Shown: positions 18,561 through 60,226 of the stretch, one piece after another | Layout: the number at the start of each line of letters is the position of its first letter | Numbering within the stretch: position 1 is the stretch's first letter | Source of the DNA: Naegleria gruberi | Lineage: Eukaryota | Length of the DNA: 64,000 nt | Strand: one strand, 5' to 3' | Assembly (NCBI GenBank): GCA_000004985.1 | Contig: GG738851.1 | Notes under the pieces: model-generated | Databases searched by the model: none | Seen by the model: only the letters and a program-made list of their open reading frames with translations | Told to the model about the DNA's origin: nothing | Made by a program: the position numbers and the translations under genes

Positions 18561-18911
18561 ATGAAAAAGATACTCTTCATTGTTCTGGTTTGCATTCTGG
18601 CTGCCCTATTCTTCAATGCTGATAAAGCTGATGGACAATTAGTGTACAGCTACCGTTATGCATATAGTTACCCTTACTCCTATGGTTACTCGTATCCATA
18701 CTCATATGGCTATTCCTACCCATATAGTTACGGATACTCATATCCATACAGCTATGGTTACTCATATCCATATAGCTATGCTTATTCCTATAGTTATCCT
18801 TACTCATACGGTGGTTATGGTTATCCTTACTCATATGGTGGTTATGGCTACCCTTACTCCTATGGTTACAGTTATCCTTATTCTTATGCTTATTCATACC
18901 GTTATTGGTAA
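18561..18911 (+). CDS. Secreted Tyr/Ser/Pro-rich repeat protein made of YSYPYSYG octapeptide repeats
   Basis: The signal peptide MKKILFIVLVCILAALFFNA is followed by about 12 tandem YSYPYSYG/YSYPYSYA units. Antisense ORFs over the repeat are artefacts. Confidence 0.6.
   Translation: MKKILFIVLVCILAALFFNADKADGQLVYSYRYAYSYPYSYGYSYPYSYGYSYPYSYGYSYPYSYGYSYPYSYAYSYSYPYSYGGYGYPYSYGGYGYPYSYGYSYPYSYAYSYRYW
18643..18900 (+). repeat. Coding tandem repeat with a roughly 24-nt unit, TAYCCWTACTCNTATGGNTACTCN, encoding YSYPYSYG
   Basis: Direct tandem periodicity is visible in both the DNA and the protein. The boundaries are approximate. Confidence 0.7.
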
Positions 18912-19540
18912 AGAAACCAATCAATGTAATTTTTTCGAAACTCTTAGTGAGACCTTGTGAGACCATCATATACCAATAAAAAAAATTAATTTGTGTGAAA
19001 CAACAATCGCTTCATTTTCAATTATTGGACTAAACATGGACCGTCCAATATGAAGTCGACATTCTGTCAAAATTATGCAAAGATAAAAGTGGACCAAATT
19101 GTGATATCAAGGCATTTTCCATATATCAATCGAAACCGATCATTTTCTATTCTGTTACGTTGTGATTACAGTAAAATGCAAAGCTCTATTTTAGATAGGA
19201 TAAACCTTTCAAATTTCCTATGGTGGTCTTGTCTTTCTTGTGAATGGAACAACAAAATTCATCGTTGCATTCAGGGGTTTATTCACAACAACGTTGAACA
19301 CTAGTTTTGGCAAAATGAAAATTTGTGGATTAGGAAGGAAATATTTCCAACTTTTGAATTGGAAAAGATAACCAACTAGATTGAGAATTTTGTAAAGATA
19401 ACACTTCCAATTCAATAACTCCCTTCATGGAAAATGAATTCAATAATTCAATTCCCCAACCTGATCATTTTCCATTTTTAGAAAATATTCAAATAGATTT
19501 TTCCAAAAACGAAACTTAACATTATTCGAAAAAAAATCAA

Positions 19541-20692
19541 ATGAAACAAAAACTACCTTCCAACATTAAAGTACTCATACTTTCTCTCCTTCTGGTCCTA
19601 CTACTCTACTGTAATCTTTCACATTCGGCCAGTTTACGTGGAGAATCTAGTACGAATCCAACCGATTCAAATCCGAAATCACCATTAGCTCCAGTTCAAG
19701 GTGGCGCCTACATTATCAGTAGCCAACAACCATCCACAGCCACACAGCAACAACCTACTCAAGGATCTGTCACTCAACAAACTCAAATCGATCCAAATTC
19801 TCAAAACCAAGTCGTGTCCACAACCTCGTATCCAGCATCTGCAAATCCAACTTCGATTACGGTTATTTATCCGAGTGGAGCTACTCCTAGTAGTCAAAAT
19901 CCAGTAATTCCTAGTCAACCTACTCAGACACAACCTACACAACCTACTCAGACGCAACCAACACAACCAAGTCAACCATTGCCACAGCCACAGCCACAAC
20001 CAATTCCAAATCAAAATCAACAACAATCATATCCACAATATTCACAACAAAGTACCTATAGTCAATATACAACTGGTCAACCACAACAACAGCAACAACA
20101 ACCTTATTATGGAAATAATCAACAACAACAACCTGTCTATTCACAACAACCAGTTTATAGTCAACCACAACAACAACAACAACCTTATTATGGAAATACT
20201 CAATATGCTCCACAACAATCTTATCCTCAAAATCAATATGTCCAACAGCAACCAGTGTATAGCCAACCAGTCCAACAACAACAACAACCTTATTATACTT
20301 CATCACCTCAATATGCTCCTGTCCAGAGTGGTCAACCAGCTTATTATCCACAAACACAACAGCCATACTATGGAAACACTCAATATGTCCAACAACAGCC
20401 TCAATATGTTCCACAAACTCAATATGTCCAACAACCTTACAATGGTGGTGCTCAATATTATTATCCACAACAATCTTATCCTCAAACTCAATATGTCCAA
20501 CAACCATACTATGGAACAACTGGTTATGCTGCACAACCATATGTATCGGGTGGATATCCTGCAACCACAGCTGTTGCGCCTGGCTATGGCTATGCTGCTC
20601 CTGCTGCAACTGCTGGATATGGTTATGCAGCTCCTGCAGTTGCCTATCAACCACAAGCTGTTTATTCTTCCTATCCTGCTTATTACTATTAG
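19541..20692 (+). CDS. Secreted Gln/Pro/Tyr-rich low-complexity protein, possibly extracellular matrix or wall protein
   Basis: The signal peptide is MKQKLPSNIKVLILSLLLVLLLYCNLSHSAS. PTQTQ repeats follow, then repeated QQQPYYGN(T)QY / QQPVYSQ units, and a Gly/Ala/Tyr-rich tail. It lies next to the YSY-repeat gene. Confidence 0.6.
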   Translation: MKQKLPSNIKVLILSLLLVLLLYCNLSHSASLRGESSTNPTDSNPKSPLAPVQGGAYIISSQQPSTATQQQPTQGSVTQQTQIDPNSQNQVVSTTSYPASANPTSITVIYPSGATPSSQNPVIPSQPTQTQPTQPTQTQPTQPSQPLPQPQPQPIPNQNQQQSYPQYSQQSTYSQYTTGQPQQQQQQPYYGNNQQQQPVYSQQPVYSQPQQQQQPYYGNTQYAPQQSYPQNQYVQQQPVYSQPVQQQQQPYYTSSPQYAPVQSGQPAYYPQTQQPYYGNTQYVQQQPQYVPQTQYVQQPYNGGAQYYYPQQSYPQTQYVQQPYYGTTGYAAQPYVSGGYPATTAVAPGYGYAAPAATAGYGYAAPAVAYQPQAVYSSYPAYYY

Positions 20693-28006: not shown

Positions 28007-28329
28007 TTGATCATTTTCATAAACAGAAAATGTAGATTCCCCAAGATTATTTAATGGTAAAATTATGTCCTTTTCTATTGTTGTTGTATTATTGATGATG
28101 TTAGAATCGGAATGATTTTCAATTCTTATTAAATTATTATTTTCAAAATTAATATTAAACTAGATTAGTATGAATGGGATTGGATATATAATGATTGTGT
28201 CATACCTTTGCATGGTGATAACATCGGTGATGATAAAGTGTTTGGAAAGATTTGAAAGGTTTTGAGTTGAGTTTTTGCATTTTTTATTTTTATTTTTAAA
28301 TACAGTGGAAAATCCGATGTTAAGAGAAG

Positions 28330-28374
28330 GTCATTTATTTTTAATGGGGACGTCATTTTTAATGTGAACAAGAA
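28330..28374 (+). promoter_or_regulatory. Conserved 5' flank of the tRNA-Lys gene, also present at 37760..37805. It may be an upstream Pol III element or part of a duplicated unit.
   Basis: The block ATTTATTTTTAATGGGGACGTCATTTTTAATGTGAACAAGAA matches the sequence upstream of the second tRNA-Lys copy at about 40 of 45 positions. It contains the palindrome GACGTC. Confidence 0.45.
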
Positions 28375-28447
28375 GCCCGTCTAGCTCAGTCGGTAGAGCG
28401 CAAGGCTCTTAACCTTGTGGTCGTGGGTTCGACCCCCACGGTGGGCG
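28375..28447 (+). tRNA. tRNA-Lys (anticodon CTT)
   Basis: The sequence is GCCCGTCTAGCTCAGTCGGTAGAGCGCAAGGCTCTTAACCTTGTGGTCGTGGGTTCGACCCCCACGGTGGGCG. It folds as a cloverleaf with a 7-bp acceptor and the anticodon loop CTCTTAA. No CCA is encoded. Confidence 0.9.
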
Positions 28448-28788
28448 ATTCAATTTTATTTTTCAACTTATCATTCATAAGGCAATTATTATATCTTGAT
28501 CCTATTGTGGATGTGAAACGTCTATTGGTTTAGTGGTGGGATCAATTAGCAACCATGTAAAAGGTTTGTTTACAATTAAACCACAAAACATCCATGAACT
28601 TGCATGAACCAACAATTTCCGCGCCAAAACCCTAATCTACAACAAACAAACATAAAAAAATAGGTAAAGAATCCCTTCCTTATTATTATATTGGTTGCTA
28701 GATTCAAGTTTTTTGTATTTACGCGCAGAATTTGAGAATATTAAGCCTTCGCTGTCATCACAAGATATAATTATTAAGAAATCTAACA

Positions 28789-31979: not shown

Positions 31980-32800
31980 AAAATCCATTACTGGTTGTCA
32001 ATTTCAAAAGACCCATATCACCAACATATTTCGCTCCTTCATTACCAATATTGTTGGTCCGAATATTGAGGAATAATAACTGTTTAGTTCACTAATGTAT
32101 TTTGCACCTTTAGAACTATCATTGTATTATTGATTAAGATTAGTTAATTACTTTTTTTCACAGATAAGTTCCTTCGTCACCAATCCTATTTGAACAAATA
32201 TTAAGCTCAGTTACTTGTTTCAATATACTAATATATTTAGCTCCTTACTTGCAAAGATTATTAAAACTAATATTAAGGTTAGTTAATTGCTTCATTTCAG
32301 TGAGATAGTTAGCTCTGTCTTTATTAATATGATTTCAGCTAATATCGAGATTAATCAATTGTTTCAGGTTAGTAAGAAGCTCAACTCCGTCATCAATACT
32401 ATATCCACAAATAAAAAGTTCAGTCAATTGATTCATGCTGCTGATAGATTTAGCTCCTATACAACCATCAGGATTACAAGCAATATATTAAGACGCGGTA
32501 AAGATTTCATTTCGCTGCTGAAATATTAAAGTCCTTCAGCACCTATATAGTTATTATCAAGTATAGTTAAACGGATCAATTTGCTTATAAATTGAGCTCC
32601 TTCATTAACGATATCATTGAATCCAATATCAAGACTAATCTATTTATCCATTTTGATTACCAATTTAGCTCCTTTTGCTCCAATCGTATTTCCAATAGAA
32701 AGTTGCATATTTGTGAAATGAAACATCGTAAAGAAACTAATGCACAATCCATTATCAATAAATTTAACATTATCCTAATGAAAAATTAAAATTTCATAAA
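31980..32800 (-). pseudogene. Degenerate F-box-like/LRR gene remnant, inverted relative to the intact family member at 32948
   Basis: Minus-strand translation gives repeated LRR units of the same family (IG.EGAKYISEL / N.LT.LNIS) every 72 nt. These are interrupted by many stops and frameshifts. The N-terminal-like remnant lies nearest 32800. Confidence 0.5.
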
Positions 32801-32947
32801 GGATATCATCGGGTAGGAAATTGTTAAATTCTGAAATGCAAGTTGAAAAATTATTTGATGATTTTTCAAGGGTTTCGTCCAGTGATTTTTACAAGAGTTT
32901 TGGTCAACCGAGTTTGTTCAGCAATACGAAAATAATAATTAAAAAAA

Positions 32948-34504
32948 ATGGTAAATTCTGCAAGGGAGCATCAAGAAGGTTTATTTTCCAACGACGTTTG
33001 TTTTGAAATATTGTCATTTCTTGATGGTTGGACTATTATTCGAAACTGCGCTTTAATTTCTAAACAGTGGTTTGAAATTATTAGAAATTATTCGAAACTT
33101 GATCTTGAGGTAATGAGTAAACTTTCCACGGAAAGAATCACCATGTTATCCGAAAGTCAATTCTTGAATAGAATTATTGGCTTCAAAGTTGGAAAGTATG
33201 CAGCTTCCGAATTTGTATTATTCGAAAGCTCAAACCTTGAACAATTATGGGAAACTATTGGTTCAATGTCTCAATTGACTAAACTTGATGTTGGCAAGAC
33301 TGGATTACATACTTTTCCCATTTCAATTTTACCTAATTTGGAAAATTTAACAGAATTAAACTTGACATTTTTGGAAATATTTGACCAAGGAGCAAAAATA
33401 ATAAGTCAACGATTGAAATTCATAACCAAACTCAGCGTCGATTATTGTGGAATTGGAATTGAAGGAGTACAAGCAATTGGAAATATGAAACAATTGACTT
33501 TTTTGAATATTAGTGAAAATGAAATGAGAAATGAAGAGATTGAATTGATTGGAACACTTGATCAACTCAAATATTTGAGTATTCGAAATATTACACGTGA
33601 GAATAACAGTGTTGATGATTATCTAGATTTTAATTCTCTGAAAAATCTGAAATTGTTGACCTACCTCAATATTGGTGAAAATAGAATTTCAGATGAGATT
33701 GGTTTACAATTTTTGAGAGAAATGAAACAATTGACTCATCTCAATGTTGCAAACATGGAAATTGGAAGTATTGGGGCTAAAATAATCAGTGAAATGACAC
33801 ATTTAGTTAAACTAAATATTGGACGAAATGATATTGGAAGAACTGGAATTGATTATATAGGTGAAATGAAACAATTGACCTCATTGAATGTTCAAAACTG
33901 CAATTTAATGGAATGTAAATTTTTATGTGGAATGAAACAATTACAATATTTGAATATTAGCGAAAATACAATTAGAAATGAAGGAGTGGATTTAATTTGT
34001 AAAGAACTATCTCAATTGAAATTTCTGAACATTTCTGAAATATTGTCAAGACCCTATCAATTTAGAAATGTACTCCCCATAAAATTGGAGAATTTACCTC
34101 GCCTTAATCAATTAACTGAGCTCGATCTTAGTAGTGATCGAGTGAATGAAGAAAGTTTGATTTTTCTTCTTGAATTGAAATGTTTAACCTCACTGAATGT
34201 CAGAAGAAATAGCATTACTTGTAATTGTGCTAAAATCATTAGTGGAATGAGCCAATTAACCAAACTGAATATCAGTGAGACACAAGTTGATGAATTGGTG
34301 ATGGAATATATTTGTGGAATGAAAGAGTTGCGAGTGTTGTATATGCAAAAGAATTATTTAGAAAATGATTCAGAGGTTGTTGACTTGATTGAGAAAATGG
34401 AAAGTTTGACTGAACTTGATATTAGTGATTGTTATATCAGTATTGAAAATGAAACCAAATTAAGAGAAATTAAGAAATTAAGGAAGCTTGTATTATTTGC
34501 TTAA
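32948..34504 (+). CDS. F-box-like / leucine-rich repeat protein (RNI-like LRR family)
   Basis: The N-terminus FSNDVCFEILSFLDGWTIIRNCALISKQWFEII is F-box-like. It is followed by about 15 LRRs of the L..LN(I/V)..N.IG.EG type. Confidence 0.75.
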   Translation: MVNSAREHQEGLFSNDVCFEILSFLDGWTIIRNCALISKQWFEIIRNYSKLDLEVMSKLSTERITMLSESQFLNRIIGFKVGKYAASEFVLFESSNLEQLWETIGSMSQLTKLDVGKTGLHTFPISILPNLENLTELNLTFLEIFDQGAKIISQRLKFITKLSVDYCGIGIEGVQAIGNMKQLTFLNISENEMRNEEIELIGTLDQLKYLSIRNITRENNSVDDYLDFNSLKNLKLLTYLNIGENRISDEIGLQFLREMKQLTHLNVANMEIGSIGAKIISEMTHLVKLNIGRNDIGRTGIDYIGEMKQLTSLNVQNCNLMECKFLCGMKQLQYLNISENTIRNEGVDLICKELSQLKFLNISEILSRPYQFRNVLPIKLENLPRLNQLTELDLSSDRVNEESLIFLLELKCLTSLNVRRNSITCNCAKIISGMSQLTKLNISETQVDELVMEYICGMKELRVLYMQKNYLENDSEVVDLIEKMESLTELDISDCYISIENETKLREIKKLRKLVLFA

Positions 34505-36732: not shown

Positions 36733-37608
36733 ATGCAAATCCAACAACGACACATTGTTGCTGCTGCAGTTACCATCTTTCTCTTGGTGATTGTCTTTTC
36801 TCTAATGCCAAAAGCCACCGATGACAACTCCAAATACAACAATCATCATCAACAACAACCACAAATCTTGAATGCCAAACAATGTCCTCCATGTCCAACA
36901 ACAGCTGTTCAACAACAACAACAACAGACTTTCAAATCAGGTTCTTGTCCACCTGTTCAAGAATGTAAATGTTACTCTCTGACAGATGCCCCACCAACAG
37001 AACATGGTGATGGACAAGTTACAATGGCCACAACATTTGGTAAAGCACTTAACAAACTTGCTAAACAAGATGATGTGAATACAGTATTGGAAATTGGTAC
37101 TTGGTTTGGTGGTGGTTCTACTCAATGTATTGCCAAGGGATTGAAGGAATCAGGCTCTCATAAAAGATTATACACATTGGAATTATACGAACCTGCTTGG
37201 CAATATGCTAGAAAGACCTATTCACACATGCCAATTTACTTTATTTTGGGAGGAACAGTGCCAACTGATAAATATTTGGCACCAGATGAAATTCCACACA
37301 AGGACGATCACTTTAAATTATATTATCAGAGAGATATTGAATTATCAAAGAAGAATATTCCATGGTTGATGCCATTGTGTTTAGCAACTAGATTTGATGC
37401 TGTTTTGATTGATGGTAATGAATATACTGGTTGGGCTGAATATGAAATTGTTAATGATCATTGTAAACCAAAATATTTAATGTTGCATGATGTTGGTACT
37501 TTAAAGACAAATAAGATTGAAAAGGTTATTAAACAAGGTGGAACTGTTTGGGAATTGATAGATGAAGGTCAAGATGCTGCCAGATGGCAAATTTATAAGA
37601 GAAAATAA
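36733..37608 (+). CDS. Class I SAM-dependent O-methyltransferase-like protein (family 3 / Methyltransf_24-like) with an N-terminal signal anchor
   Basis: Motif I is VLEIGTWFGGGSTQCIAKGL, post-motif II is FDAVLIDGNEY, and motif III is LMLHDVG. The N-terminal hydrophobic anchor is VAAAVTIFLLVIVFSLM. A Q-rich linker is also present. Confidence 0.5.
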   Translation: MQIQQRHIVAAAVTIFLLVIVFSLMPKATDDNSKYNNHHQQQPQILNAKQCPPCPTTAVQQQQQQTFKSGSCPPVQECKCYSLTDAPPTEHGDGQVTMATTFGKALNKLAKQDDVNTVLEIGTWFGGGSTQCIAKGLKESGSHKRLYTLELYEPAWQYARKTYSHMPIYFILGGTVPTDKYLAPDEIPHKDDHFKLYYQRDIELSKKNIPWLMPLCLATRFDAVLIDGNEYTGWAEYEIVNDHCKPKYLMLHDVGTLKTNKIEKVIKQGGTVWELIDEGQDAARWQIYKRK

Positions 37609-37805
37609 TTGATAAAATTATTATGAAATAAATCCAAGAATAATATTAATTATTGACAATGTCTTCTATTAACAATTTTAGGTAATTTTAATTGTGATGT
37701 AGCTGCTTGGATTTCATGGCTAAAATCTGTGAAATAGAAATGTTTCCTTTGTTTAGAGGCAGTTATTTATTTTTTATAGGGACGTCATTTTCAATATGAA
37801 CAAGA

Positions 37806-37878
37806 AGCCCGTCTAGCTCAGTCGGTAGAGCGCAAGGCTCTTAACCTTGTGGTCGTGGGTTCGACCCCCACGGTGGGC
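37806..37878 (+). tRNA. tRNA-Lys (anticodon CTT), second identical copy
   Basis: The 73-nt sequence is identical to 28375..28447 and the roughly 45-nt 5' flank at 37760..37805 is shared. The 3' flank differs. Confidence 0.9.
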
Positions 37879-37977
37879 GTTTCCTTTTGGTTTAATTTTT
37901 TTTTGCTCTATTTTGCAGAGTGATTTTGAATTAATTGAGACAAGGTCCTCAAATCCTGAAAATAAGGTATCTACATA

Positions 37978-38979: not shown

Positions 38980-40326
38980 TTATGATGGAGGTAAAACAAG
39001 AAGGTTGGTATTTTCGAATCGATATTTTCAAAATAATAATAATAATTAATGAATTGAATTGTTAATTAATAGAGAAGGTTATATTTTCGGATGATGTTTG
39101 TTTTGAAATTATTTCCATGATTGATGATTCGTGGTTTATTTTGAATAATTGTTCTTTAATTTCAAAACAATGGTTTAATGTGATCAAGGAACGTTCAAAA
39201 CTTGTTATTCAATTTAAAAAACAATTAACAGAAAAAAGAATTGAATTGTTAATGAAAAGTCAATTCATGAATAGTATTGTAAATGTTAAGTTTTATTATG
39301 GGTTGCTTAACTCTTCAGATAAACTTAAATTCATAAGTGGAATGAAATCATTAACATCACTTAATATTGGTCATAATGAAATTGGTGTAGAAGGAGCCAA
39401 ATTCATAAGTGAAATGAAACATGTAACATCACTTTATATACATTACAATGAAATTGGTGTAGAAGGATCCAAATTTATAAGTGAAATGAAACAATTAACA
39501 TCACTTAATATTGCTGACAATGAAATTGGCGTAGAAGGATCCAAATTCATAAGTGAAATGAAACAATTAACATCACTTAATATTGATTACAATGAAATTG
39601 GTGTAGAAGGAGCCAAATTCATAAGTGAAATGAAACAATTAACATCACTTAATATTGCTCGACAATGAAATTGGCGTAGAAGGATCCAAATTCATAAGTG
39701 AAATGAAACAATTAACATCACTTAATATTGGTGGCAATGAAATTGGTGTAGAAGGAGCCAAATACATGAGTGAAATGAAACATTTAACATCACTTGATAT
39801 ACATCGCAATGAAATTGGTGTAGAAGGATCCAAATTCATAAGTGAAATGAAACATTTAACATCACTTAATATATATTACAATGAAATTGGTGTAGAAGGA
39901 TCCAAATACATAAGTGAAATGAAACATTTAACATCACTTAATATTGGTGATAATGAAATTGGTGTAGAAGGATCCAAATACATAAGTGAAATGAAACAAT
40001 TAACATCACTTAATATTGCTGACAATGAAATTGGCGTAGAAGGATCCAAATTCATAAGTGAAATGAAACATTTAACATCACTTTATATATATTACAATGA
40101 AATTGGTGTAGAAGGAGCCAAATTCATAAGTGAAATGAAACATTTAACATCACTTAATATTTCTGGCAATCAAATTGGTGATGAGGGATCCAAATTCATA
40201 AGTGAAATGAAATCATTAACATCACTTAATATTGGTGATAATGAAATTGGTGTAGAAGGAGCCAAATTCATAAGTGGAATGAAACAATTAACATCACTTA
40301 ATATTGATGACAATGAATTGGTGTAG
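38980..40326 (+). CDS. F-box-like / LRR protein built from near-identical 24-aa repeats. It has a probable 5' micro-exon and an internal +1 frameshift near 39659, so it may be a pseudogene or contain a sequence error.
   Basis: Candidate exon 1 is ATGATGGAG (38980..38988) with a GTAAAA donor. Candidate exon 2 starts after AATAGAG, about 39070, and encodes KVIFSDDVCFEIISMIDDSWFILNNCSLISKQWF, matching the N-termini of the 32948 and 40532 genes. About 14 repeats of NIGDNEIGVEGSKFISEMKQLTSL follow. An extra C in GCTCGACAATGAA shifts the frame, where the other units read GCTGACAATGAA. This is why the ORF track splits the gene into 39117..39668 and 39655..40326. Confidence 0.55.
39340..40320 (+). 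repeat. Tandem array of about 14 near-identical 72-bp coding repeats, the LRR units of the gene above
   Basis: The unit GGAATGAAA(C/T)ATTTAACATCACTTAATATTGGTGATAATGAAATTGGTGTAGAAGGA(G/T)CCAAATTCATAAGT repeats head to tail with only a few substitutions per copy. Confidence 0.85.
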
Positions 40327-40397
40327 AATAAAACGTGAAACTTTATTAATGTCTCTTATATCAATAACAGCCTTGATGACATTTGGTAGGTCTCATA

Positions 40398-40431
40398 TCT
40401 TAAGGTCGTGAGTTCGACCCCCATGGTGGGC
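40398..40431 (+). pseudogene. tRNA-Lys(CTT) 3'-half fragment running from the anticodon loop to the acceptor 3' strand
   Basis: The sequence CTTAAGGTCGTGAGTTCGACCCCCATGGTGGGCG, followed by the flank ATTCAATTTT, matches the 3' half and 3' flank of the tRNA-Lys copy at 28375. About 6 nt are deleted and there are 2 substitutions. No 5' half is present. Confidence 0.55.
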
Positions 40432-40531
40432 GATTCAATTTTTGTTGATCACAATTATCGTAGTGGTTGCTGATGATGAACTTTGTCCTATTATTAGGTT
40501 CACTAAGTCTTTCTAATTATTTAAAAAAAAA

Positions 40532-41884
40532 ATGATGATCAATTACGAATCAGTCTCCAATTCCATCAATTCCTCCCATTCCACAATATTCTCTGATGAT
40601 ATTTGTTATGAAATTCTATCCTATTTCCATGAGGAAAATGATGGAAAATTTATTCTACTAAATTGTTCGTTAATTTCCAAACAGTGGATGATGAATGTGA
40701 AGAAATTCGGAAAGATTTCAATTAATATTCGAAATAGAGTTTCGGATTCATTGATAGAACCAATCAAGAGAAATCAATTTTTGGAATGTTTTGTGAAATT
40801 TGGAATTTATTCGCAAGATTTCAAGTTTCATGAAATAATTAAAATGATGAAGAATTTAAAAAGTCTTTCTATTGGAAATTGTTCTATTGGAGAGGAGGAT
40901 TTGAAATTTATCGGAGAAATGAATCATTTAACTGAACTTGAATTGTGTGAATGTTTGACTGGAGATAAAGATATTAGACCAATTAGTAGAATGTCTCAAT
41001 TGACTAAATTAAATATTAGTAAGAATGCAAAATACCATTTAAGCGATATCTTTGACATGAAGCAATTAAAAATACTAGAAATTGGAGAAAATTTCATAGG
41101 AGATGAACAAGCTGAACTGCTTTCCAATCATTTGAAACAATTGACCATTTTACGAATTAATAACAACTTAATTCATTCTCAAGGTGTTAAACATTTGAGT
41201 AAATTGGATCAATTGACTGAATTAGATTTAAGTGGAAATGCTTTTAATGATACAATTGGCTCTGAAATTGCAAAAATGGAACAATTGAAAACTCTTCACG
41301 TTAACAAACTTGCAAGACATCGAATGGGATCACGGTTGGGTTCACAATTTGGAAACTTATTTCAATTGACCAGTCTTAGTATAAGTAATAATTATATTGG
41401 AGATGAAGGAGCCAACGAAATTAGTAATTTAACACAATTGACTGAATTATATGTACATGGAGCTGAAATTGGATATAGAGGAGCCAGATCATTAAGTGTT
41501 TTACACCAGTTGACCAAACTAGATATCAGTACAAATCATATTGGAGATGAGGGAGTTAGATTATTCAAACAATTATCAAAATTAACAGAACTTGTTGTGT
41601 TTAATAATAGAATTGGAGATGTTGGAGCACAACTTATTAGTGAAATTCCTCAATTGACCTCTCTTGTTGTTAGTAGCAATCAAATTGGAAACGAAGGGGC
41701 AAAATCAATTAGTCAAATGTCAAAATTGAAATATCTTTCGATTAATGGAAATCAAATTGGTGATCAAGGAGCTAAATTATTAAGTGAAATGAATCAATTA
41801 AGAAGAATTGAAGTTTATGGAAATAATATTAGTAATGAGATATTTCAATTATTTGGAATTAAAATTCAAAATAAATTGAAATAA
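40532..41884 (+). CDS. F-box-like / leucine-rich repeat protein (RNI-like LRR family)
   Basis: The N-terminus IFSDDICYEILSYFHEENDGKFILLNCSLISKQWMM is F-box-like. About 14 LRRs follow, for example LTELDLSGNAFNDTIGSEIA and LTSLVVSSNQIGNEGAKSISQ. Confidence 0.75.
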   Translation: MMINYESVSNSINSSHSTIFSDDICYEILSYFHEENDGKFILLNCSLISKQWMMNVKKFGKISINIRNRVSDSLIEPIKRNQFLECFVKFGIYSQDFKFHEIIKMMKNLKSLSIGNCSIGEEDLKFIGEMNHLTELELCECLTGDKDIRPISRMSQLTKLNISKNAKYHLSDIFDMKQLKILEIGENFIGDEQAELLSNHLKQLTILRINNNLIHSQGVKHLSKLDQLTELDLSGNAFNDTIGSEIAKMEQLKTLHVNKLARHRMGSRLGSQFGNLFQLTSLSISNNYIGDEGANEISNLTQLTELYVHGAEIGYRGARSLSVLHQLTKLDISTNHIGDEGVRLFKQLSKLTELVVFNNRIGDVGAQLISEIPQLTSLVVSSNQIGNEGAKSISQMSKLKYLSINGNQIGDQGAKLLSEMNQLRRIEVYGNNISNEIFQLFGIKIQNKLK

Positions 41885-52581: not shown

Positions 52582-52683
52582 TGCTATGTAAATTTTGTAC
52601 TGTTGTTGGACAAGTGAAAGCTCTGATGGAAACCTGTTAAATCTGAATTTAATATTTCTAGTCTTAAAAAAGTTACGCCGTAA

Positions 52684-52757
52684 GGGAGTCGAACCCTTGA
52701 CCTTCAGCGTGTAAAGCTGACGATCTAACCAACTGATCTAACGGCGCTTGATGAAGC
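52684..52757 (-). tRNA. tRNA-Val (anticodon TAC)
   Basis: The minus-strand sequence is GCGCCGTTAGATCAGTTGGTTAGATCGTCAGCTTTACACGCTGAAGGTCAAGGGTTCGACTCCCTTACGGCGTA. The anticodon loop is TTTACAC. There is a G1-U72 wobble. Confidence 0.85.
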
Positions 52758-52955
52758 AAAAGAAAGAATTAAGGAGCAGTGTTGATAATTACCAGTTTAC
52801 ATGTTGGCCAACTCTGATTTTTAACAATTCAATGCATACCATACTGTACTTTGAGTTTATTGAGAATCCCTTTTAACAAACAAAAATGGAAACAGATTAC
52901 AGTCATTACAACGTTTCCAGGCATCAATTTTGAAAATAATTGATTTTCGATGAAA

Positions 52956-53027
52956 GGGACCATGGTCTAGTGGTATGATTCTCGCTTTGGGTGCGAGAGG
53001 CCGTGGGTTCGATTCCCACTGGTCCCC
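52956..53027 (+). tRNA. tRNA-Pro (anticodon TGG)
   Basis: The sequence is GGGACCATGGTCTAGTGGTATGATTCTCGCTTTGGGTGCGAGAGGCCGTGGGTTCGATTCCCACTGGTCCCC. The anticodon loop is TTTGGGT, and the core is almost identical to metazoan tRNA-Pro-TGG. Confidence 0.85.
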
Positions 53028-53095: not shown

Positions 53096-53118
53096 GGTGC
53101 GATTCCCACTGGTCCCCA
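53096..53118 (+). pseudogene. Partial duplicate of the tRNA-Pro 3' end (T-arm half plus acceptor 3' strand)
   Basis: GGTGCGATTCCCACTGGTCCCCA lies about 70 nt downstream of the intact gene and matches its last 18 nt exactly. Confidence 0.45.
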
Positions 53119-53590
53119 ATCCATTTTATTTTGTTCTACATTATCTATTTATCAAAATTGGTATGAGTATACCACTCACCAAATGATTAGAATTAAAAGG
53201 AAAACTACCAATAGAGAATCGAATTAGTGGGAATGATTCATACATATTCACCCTTTTCGAGCTTCCTTTTCACACTCAAATTCAAATTATCAACAAATGT
53301 CAAAAGGTGAAATACATTTCTTGAATTTCAGCTCCTTCACTCATCAGCGACAACACTTTCCAATTCGACTTCTCATAAACGACATTCCTTGTATCTAAAA
53401 GCGCGCAACGAAACTAACACTCAAAACAAAGTACATGCGCTCATTCCTTCTTCTTACCATTTAAATTGCATCACCATTTCGCTCAACATTTTGAAAAAAA
53501 CAAGACAACAATATCACTGAGACAAATCTCAATAACAACAACAACAATACTAGTTTTACATCTAGTTTTTGAAAAAAGAACAGAAACAAT

Positions 53591-60151: not shown

Positions 60152-60226
60152 TGCTACCCGCGCGGATCGAACGCACATCTTCTTACTCCCGATAAGCAAG
60201 ACGCCCTACCATTAGACCAGAGCAGC
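60152..60226 (-). tRNA. Atypical tRNA-like gene with an 11-nt region between the anticodon-stem halves. The anticodon is ambiguous; TAT (Ile) with a 4-nt insertion is one reading, and a 6-bp stem with a 9-nt loop is another.
   Basis: The minus-strand sequence is GCTGCTCTGGTCTAATGGTAGGGCGTCTTGCTTATCGGGAGTAAGAAGATGTGCGTTCGATCCGCGCGGGTAGCA. The acceptor, D arm and T arm (GTGCG-TTCGATC-CGCGC) are canonical. The anticodon stem is TCTTG/TAAGA and encloses CTTATCGGGAG. Confidence 0.5.

Follow-up and report, generated by a model that had tools for sequence, protein, structure and literature searches.

Why should two transfer RNA genes that lie 9.4 kb apart have in common not only their mature sequence but also some 60 bases of the DNA in front of it? 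The question is raised by a pair of tRNA-Lys(CTT) genes in Naegleria gruberi, located in a 64-kb stretch of genomic DNA that was analysed as a whole and is referred to here as the window. A sequence-only reading of this stretch had offered two explanations side by side, namely a gene-specific upstream control element for RNA polymerase III (Pol III) and the footprint of a small duplicated unit. On balance, we consider it probable that a small dispersed duplication of the complete tRNA-Lys(CTT) transcription unit took place, the 5' flanks resembling each other by descent together with a mild, generic promoter constraint.

The window has a G+C content of about 34%, is gene-dense and carries long uninterrupted ORFs, whose products include calpains, a kinase-WD40 protein and F-box/LRR proteins with 24-residue repeats. 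One of the ORFs, 36733-37608, matches an N. gruberi protein at 100% along its entire length, which identifies the window as nuclear DNA of that species. Seven tRNA or tRNA-like genes were predicted across it by ARAGORN, six of which are backed by Rfam and two of which are tRNA-Lys(CTT). The latter, copy 1 (28375-28447, plus strand) and copy 2 (37807-37879, plus strand), are in the same orientation, are identical at 73 of 73 positions and each score 66.4 bits with Rfam model RF00005, the gathering score of which is 29. Their identity had been recognised from the letters alone and holds in full, with the start of the second gene shifted by one base, from 37806 to 37807. Both copies contain an internal A box (TAGCTCAGTCGG) and B box (GGTTCGACCCC) and, as read in the sequence, no encoded CCA. 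A T-run follows the 3' end of every tRNA in the window. The trailer of copy 1 (28448-28463, plus strand) consists of ATTCAA followed by TTTT (28454-28457) and TTTTT (28459-28463), a presumed Pol III terminator, while that of copy 2 (37880-37904, plus strand) comprises TTTCC, TTTT (37885-37888) and a long T-run (37896-37904); directly 3' of the tRNA, the sequence reads ATTCAATTTT in copy 1 and TTTCCTTTT in copy 2. Since A and B boxes, the lack of an encoded CCA and T-runs are marks of eukaryotic nuclear tRNA genes transcribed by Pol III, the two copies are predicted, by cloverleaf, boxes and terminator, to be nuclear genes with a type 2 Pol III promoter.

Other predictions in the window merit a brief description. 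On the minus strand at 60152-60226, ARAGORN reports a "tRNA-Pro(ggg)" whose anticodon falls on position 37; the Rfam tRNA model does not match it at E<=1. In its cloverleaf, the acceptor and T arms are well formed, but the anticodon stem measures 8 bp and the loop 5 nt. A T-run lies 3' of it, and the locus may be either a pseudogene or an unusual tRNA-like gene for Pol III. At 52674-53027, tRNA-Val(TAC) on the minus strand is separated by 208 nt from tRNA-Pro(TGG) on the plus strand, the two genes being arranged divergently.

Upstream of the two Lys genes, 40 of the 45 positions from -45 to -1 match (89%), the mismatches falling at -43, -32, -29, -15 and -11, and a weaker similarity extends to about -62, which places the shared flank (-62 to -1) at 28313-28374 for copy 1 and at 37745-37806 for copy 2, both on the plus strand. 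The earlier count of about 40 in 45 is thus reproduced, and it lies far outside the background: 20,000 random pairs of 45-mers drawn from the window as a control matched at 12.4 positions on average (sd 3.1) and at 25 at most, and the other 20 pairings of upstream flanks in the window (all but Lys1/Lys2) at 10-18 of 45. In copy 1, the flank comprises a T/A-rich segment (28332-28346, -43 to -29), the sequence GGGACGTCA (28347-28355, -28 to -20) and a CAA (28369-28371, -6 to -4); in copy 2, GGGACGTCA lies at 37779-37787 and CAA at 37801-37803 (-6 to -4). Within the 64 kb, GGGACGTCA occurs at the two Lys loci only, as does a 26-nt core, ATNGGGACGTCATTTTNAATNTGAAC, when up to three mismatches are tolerated (<=3), with no occurrence in 100 shuffles. 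Neither the block nor GGGACGTCA is present upstream of the other five tRNA or tRNA-like genes of the window (Trp, Ile, Val, Pro and the odd one described above). No snoRNA or other RNA family was matched in the block by Rfam, even at E<=1.

A direct repeat can also be read inside the block (28337-28369, plus strand, and 37769-37801). Its units (ATTTTTAATGGGGAC / ATTTTTAATGTGAAC), 18 nt apart, flank the GTC of GACGTC and agree at 13 of 15 positions in copy 1 and at 11 of 15 in copy 2. As a signal, this 18-nt-spaced repeat was rejected, being no more than chance would produce in 500 nt of A+T-rich sequence.

A block that stands at exactly the same distance from the tRNA in both intact copies, and is missing from the other tRNA families of the window, is what would be expected of a Lys(CTT)-specific upstream Pol III control element, kept by selection after an old duplication while the neutral flanks were randomised. 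In such an element, the palindromic GACGTC, situated 3' of the T/A-rich stretch and 5' of the start site, would serve as a binding site for a factor specific to these genes or adjust where TFIIIB is placed. We regard this explanation as unlikely, and the distribution of the matches bears on it in both directions. Identity is 10/10 from -10 to -1, 16/18 from -28 to -11, 14/17 from -45 to -29 and 8/12 from -57 to -46, beyond which it sinks into noise. Mismatches are fewer in the 45 positions from -45 to -1 (5/45) than in the outer shared parts (9/26), a difference that could reflect constraint, at a Fisher p of 0.03 for boundaries chosen post hoc. However, identity drops as a gradient and not in the manner of a footprint, and 89% over 45 consecutive positions far exceeds the need of a factor site; the smooth decay suggests erosion of a duplicated flank or conversion tracts, unlike a discrete 8-12-nt binding site. 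RNA structure in the Lys 5' leader gave no signal (z about 0).

On the 3' side, the resemblance is short. From +1 to +14 the two copies match at 9 of 14 positions, mostly in T-runs, and beyond +14 no significant similarity was found between them, in agreement with the downstream divergence claimed at the outset. With its 5' limit near -62 and its 3' limit at the first T-run beyond the tRNA, the shared unit can therefore be delimited as 28313-28461 against 37745-37893, or approximately 134-150 nt. When the region 26.0-32.9 kb was compared with the whole window by sensitive blastn, the unit was recovered as a single match of 134 nt and 92.5% identity (28318-28451 against 37750-37883), all other matches being LRR repeats unrelated to the tRNAs. 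A tblastn search with all flanking ORFs of at least 40 aa returned no match outside the tRNA unit, and local alignments of the farther flanks did not rise above shuffled controls. Likewise, the genes adjoining copy 1, a 207-aa ORF on one side and a TPR protein followed by a calpain on the other, are unrelated to those adjoining copy 2, a methyltransferase-like protein on one side and, on the other, a 115-aa ORF with an F-box/LRR gene beyond it. Since all three comparisons were empty beyond the unit, a larger recent segmental duplication, the circumstance named earlier as one that would argue against a regulatory role, was rejected: nothing similar exists beyond about -62 and +14. The alternative proposed from the sequence, the footprint of a small duplicated unit, is favoured by this sharply bounded similarity amid dissimilar flanking DNA and ORFs.

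The ends of the unit fall on functional landmarks, approximately the upstream limit expected for TFIIIB on one side and the terminator on the other. This coincidence can be counted in favour of a control element, as similarity ends where the functional unit does, and an old duplication with selective retention of the promoter would give such ends too. No junction signatures, whether target-site duplications or microhomology, were found at the unit ends.

In the small dispersed duplication that we favour, the copied unit would extend from the roughly 60-nt promoter-proximal flank through tRNA-Lys(CTT), including both internal boxes, to a short trailer with the T-run terminator. Duplication of some 135-150 bp at the DNA level would have placed the second copy 9.4 kb away, candidate modes being short-patch or templated copying, or a local duplication with ends close to the gene. 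Purifying selection would then have kept the tRNA body identical, and the 89% identity of the 5' flank over -45 to -1 would stem mainly from the copies being fairly young. The two Lys genes would have about 60 upstream bases in common because one short unit was copied, and the GGGACGTCA core would most simply be a passenger of the duplicated flank, with no dedicated control function. With just two intact copies, descent and selection are inseparable.

Part of the flank may be related to known features of tRNA promoters. In plants and Saccharomyces cerevisiae, tRNA genes carry a TATA-like element near -35 and a CAA at -7 to -3 (Zhang et al., 2011; PMC3082873). In both Lys copies, the T/A-rich segment at -43 to -29 and the CAA at -6 to -4 may correspond to this arrangement, but there is no canonical TATAAA, and the signature, being generic, leaves the GGGACGTCA core unaccounted for. 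More precisely, ATTTATTTTT(A/T)AT occupies -42 to -30 in both copies, in a background of 66% A+T. Upstream of the tRNAs at 28375, 34607, 41955, 52747 (minus strand) and 52956, a CAA lies within -8 to -1 of Lys, Trp and Val and not of Ile and Pro, and five of the six gene families in the window have an AA at -2 and -1 (P about 1e-4 given 34% A), the sample being tiny. For these few genes, the pattern hints at a start-site motif of plant or yeast type in Naegleria tRNA genes. Judged by its T/A-rich and CAA parts, the Lys flank probably includes the TFIIIB-binding and start-site region, and constraint on these sites may have slowed the divergence of the flank. A targeted full-text literature search on Pol III promoter architecture in Naegleria or Heterolobosea found nothing.

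Whether the block accompanies tRNA-Lys(CTT) genes elsewhere was addressed in other collections. No exact match to the 73-mer was found in viral, JGI-metagenome or prokaryote-genome collections. A metagenome scan in which position 60 was left free detected 61 loci with 65 tRNA-Lys(CTT) genes from varied eukaryotes, differing from the Naegleria gene by one base. None of these 65 genes has GACGTC within -70 to -1, so the GACGTC block is no deep feature of tRNA-Lys(CTT); the same count, 0/65 among near-identical genes of other eukaryotes, weighs against a control element. When the protein database was searched with all six translated frames of the tRNA, the one-base G60 variant alone was recovered and no Naegleria-type sequence, the named sources of that variant being plants (Cucumis, Panicum) and the remainder metagenome contigs. 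A giant-virus or phage origin was considered and rejected, as viral contigs gave no match and a phage collection gave generic tRNA matches only.

Two groups of metagenomic contigs show how much upstream sequence Lys(CTT) genes of one organism may have in common. At least seven distinct Lys(CTT) loci of one eukaryote from a compost metagenome have just about 5 nt upstream in common (GGAAA), together with the trailer TTCTTTTT, which again argues against a conserved Lys-specific element. On the eukaryotic contigs L030 and L064, adjacent tRNA-Lys(CTT) paralogs have upstream stretches of approximately 20-35 nt in common, which indicates that the sharing of short flanks is commonplace among tRNA paralogs. 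Compost contigs L009, L018, L021, L032, L034 and L063 have a G+C content of 37-39% and carry TTCT(T/C)TTT downstream of Lys(CTT); a divergent pair of tRNA-Lys(CTT) copies, 196 nt apart, was observed on L009 and L056. The idea that this Lys(CTT)-rich compost eukaryote is a relative of Naegleria was dropped, as no protein similarity supports it.

The closest precedent for a control element comes from animals, in which anticodon-dependent upstream motifs of about 10 nt have been reported in many dispersed copies that are argued not to be simple duplicates (PMC3082873). The likeness to the Naegleria block, which is also common to genes with the same anticodon and missing from other tRNA families, lends the element some plausibility. 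In contrast to the animal motifs, the block is 45-60 nt long and exists in just two copies, which fits simple duplication, and the motif has been seen in no second, independent line of descent. We find it doubtful that the 45-nt block, or its palindrome-containing GGGACGTCA core at -28 to -20, is a true tRNA-Lys(CTT)-specific promoter element in Heterolobosea. Were it one, it would be the first anticodon-dependent 5' control motif of Pol III described outside animals, and isoacceptor-specific regulation of the Naegleria tRNA supply would become possible.

The Lys family of the window also includes a partial copy. At 40404-40442 (plus strand), a truncated sequence comprises the T-arm, the 3' acceptor strand and the trailer ATTCAATTTT; its first part (40404-40432) matches positions 45-73 of tRNA-Lys at 27 of 29 sites (93%), and the 10 nt that follow are identical to the trailer of copy 1. 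The two substitutions (G to A and C to T) both disrupt pairing in the T-stem. On its 5' side there is neither a tRNA 5' half nor the upstream block (score 15 against a null of 15.1 +/- 2.3), and beyond its T-run it shows no likeness to the 3' flank of copy 1. By these features, the fragment is a dead, 5'-truncated patch of about 39 nt, and within the duplication favoured here it would be a non-functional patch derived from a copy-1-type gene. A third copy with the trailer of copy 1 had been reported at 40398..40431; the copy and its trailer are real, but its start lies at 40404, and the additional TCTTAA has no statistical support. These six bases could be read as an anticodon loop left after a 6-nt deletion, a reading that the statistics do not support. 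Together with the two intact genes, the truncated copy sustains the view that the family has been copied at least twice.

A second fragment, of tRNA-Pro(TGG), lies at 53096-53127 (plus strand), 68 nt 3' of the intact tRNA-Pro at 52956-53027. It matches tRNA positions 55-72 at 18 of 18 sites and, with trailer and T-run included, at 28 of 32. As the Lys and Pro fragments are independent of each other, partial copying of tRNAs recurs in this region. Both resemble tRNA pseudogene fragments and short templated insertions known elsewhere, being 5'-truncated (39 nt for Lys, 32 nt for Pro) and retaining the trailer and T-run, but differ from them in carrying neither poly(A) nor a target-site duplication nor any element sequence. 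We also considered that copy 2 and the 40404 fragment might be the two parts of a single copy-1-like locus cut by a 2.5-kb insertion. This split-locus model was dropped: the similarity of the fragment to copy 1 ends at the T-run, the trailer of copy 2 is only weakly related, and the DNA between holds merely an ordinary F-box/LRR gene.

The Lys fragment sits between two F-box/LRR genes. Three genes of this kind, at 32948-34504, 39117-40326 and 40532-41884 (all on the plus strand), contain 72-nt (24-aa) repeats, and some 70-105 nt past their stops lie tRNA-Trp (34607), the Lys fragment (40404) and tRNA-Ile (41955), respectively. A fourth LRR-like stretch is located on the minus strand at approximately 32010-32810. 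The middle gene is represented by two overlapping ORFs, 39117-39668 and 39655-40326 (plus strand), in a highly regular 72-nt repeat array (39183-40419) whose units are up to 92% identical; a small intron, a frameshift, a pseudogene or a slip of the assembly across the repeat could each explain the split. Coding low-complexity repeats were likewise observed at 18645-18917 and 19993-20532, one rich in Tyr, Ser, Pro and Gly with units of 12-24 nt, the other rich in Gln, Pro and Tyr (QQQPYYG-like) and contained in ORF 19541-20692.

The partial copy bears on two further explanations. The first is concerted evolution, in which two old copies would have been kept identical by recurrent gene conversion with tracts reaching into the 5' flank, generating the identity gradient with neither a recent duplication nor promoter selection. 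It would account for bodies identical at 73/73 positions from which identity decays away on both sides, it is compatible with copies 9.4 kb apart in the same orientation, and a fragment that is 93% identical in the 3' part with nothing recognisable on its 5' side (40404-40442) accords with it as well. Conversion nevertheless needs flanks that are already homologous, so a duplicated flank would have to come first; the decay differs strongly between the two sides, extending over about 60 nt on the 5' side against approximately 4-14 nt on the 3' side, and no tract is demonstrable from two copies. As the main cause of the resemblance, we hold it to be rather improbable.

The second explanation regards the unit as a mobile or retroposed element, i.e., a tRNA-derived SINE, a MITE or a retrocopy of a Pol III transcript. 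That the unit stops at the Pol III terminator, and that the truncated copy ends at a T-run and is 5'-truncated in the manner of retrocopies, would be consistent with it. In a SINE, the body sits downstream of the tRNA-like head; here the tRNA is intact and canonical, and the additional similarity is found in front of it. A Pol III transcript would start about 5-12 nt upstream of the tRNA, whereas approximately 60 nt are shared upstream of the Lys genes. Moreover, the unit has neither terminal inverted repeats nor target-site duplications, only two to three copies are present in the 64 kb, and neither a reverse transcriptase nor a transposase was detected among 20 Pfam-scanned ORFs covering part of the window. 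A mobile origin is accordingly very hard to sustain, and we give it hardly any credence.

For the age of the duplication, related genomes provide a weak indication. ORF 36733-37608 has its best matches outside N. gruberi in Naegleria lovaniensis (74%) and Willaertia magna (57%). No tRNA lies within 10 kb of the methyltransferase homologs of N. lovaniensis (L002, L003) and W. magna (L066), and none was found near the methyltransferase homolog on a Naegleria-like contig from ENA (L004) over its span of about 0.6 kb. The tRNA-free loci of these relatives, of unproven orthology, hint weakly that copy 2 is a young, lineage-specific copy; the evidence is weak because synteny is poor. In a search with the calpain, an ENA metagenome contig (L001) matched at 99%, its sequence not extending to the tRNA. 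A literature search on the metagenome project PRJEB11402 found nothing.

Compared with paralogous nuclear tRNA duplicates elsewhere, the Naegleria pair is alike in its identical mature tRNA, in a similarity confined to the immediate flanks and in the possession by each copy of its own T-run terminator. It differs in that the copies are 9.4 kb apart, not in tandem and with unrelated genes between them, and in that the N. gruberi Lys flank is comparatively long and well preserved (40/45). The finding is an ordinary feature of a published genome that matters little as it stands, and it illustrates how a tRNA family grows by small duplications and accumulates dead partial copies. If every Lys(CTT) gene of Naegleria proved to carry the block, this would demonstrate isoacceptor-specific upstream control of Pol III in a deep-branching protist and would offer a handle on the Pol III promoter architecture of Heterolobosea.
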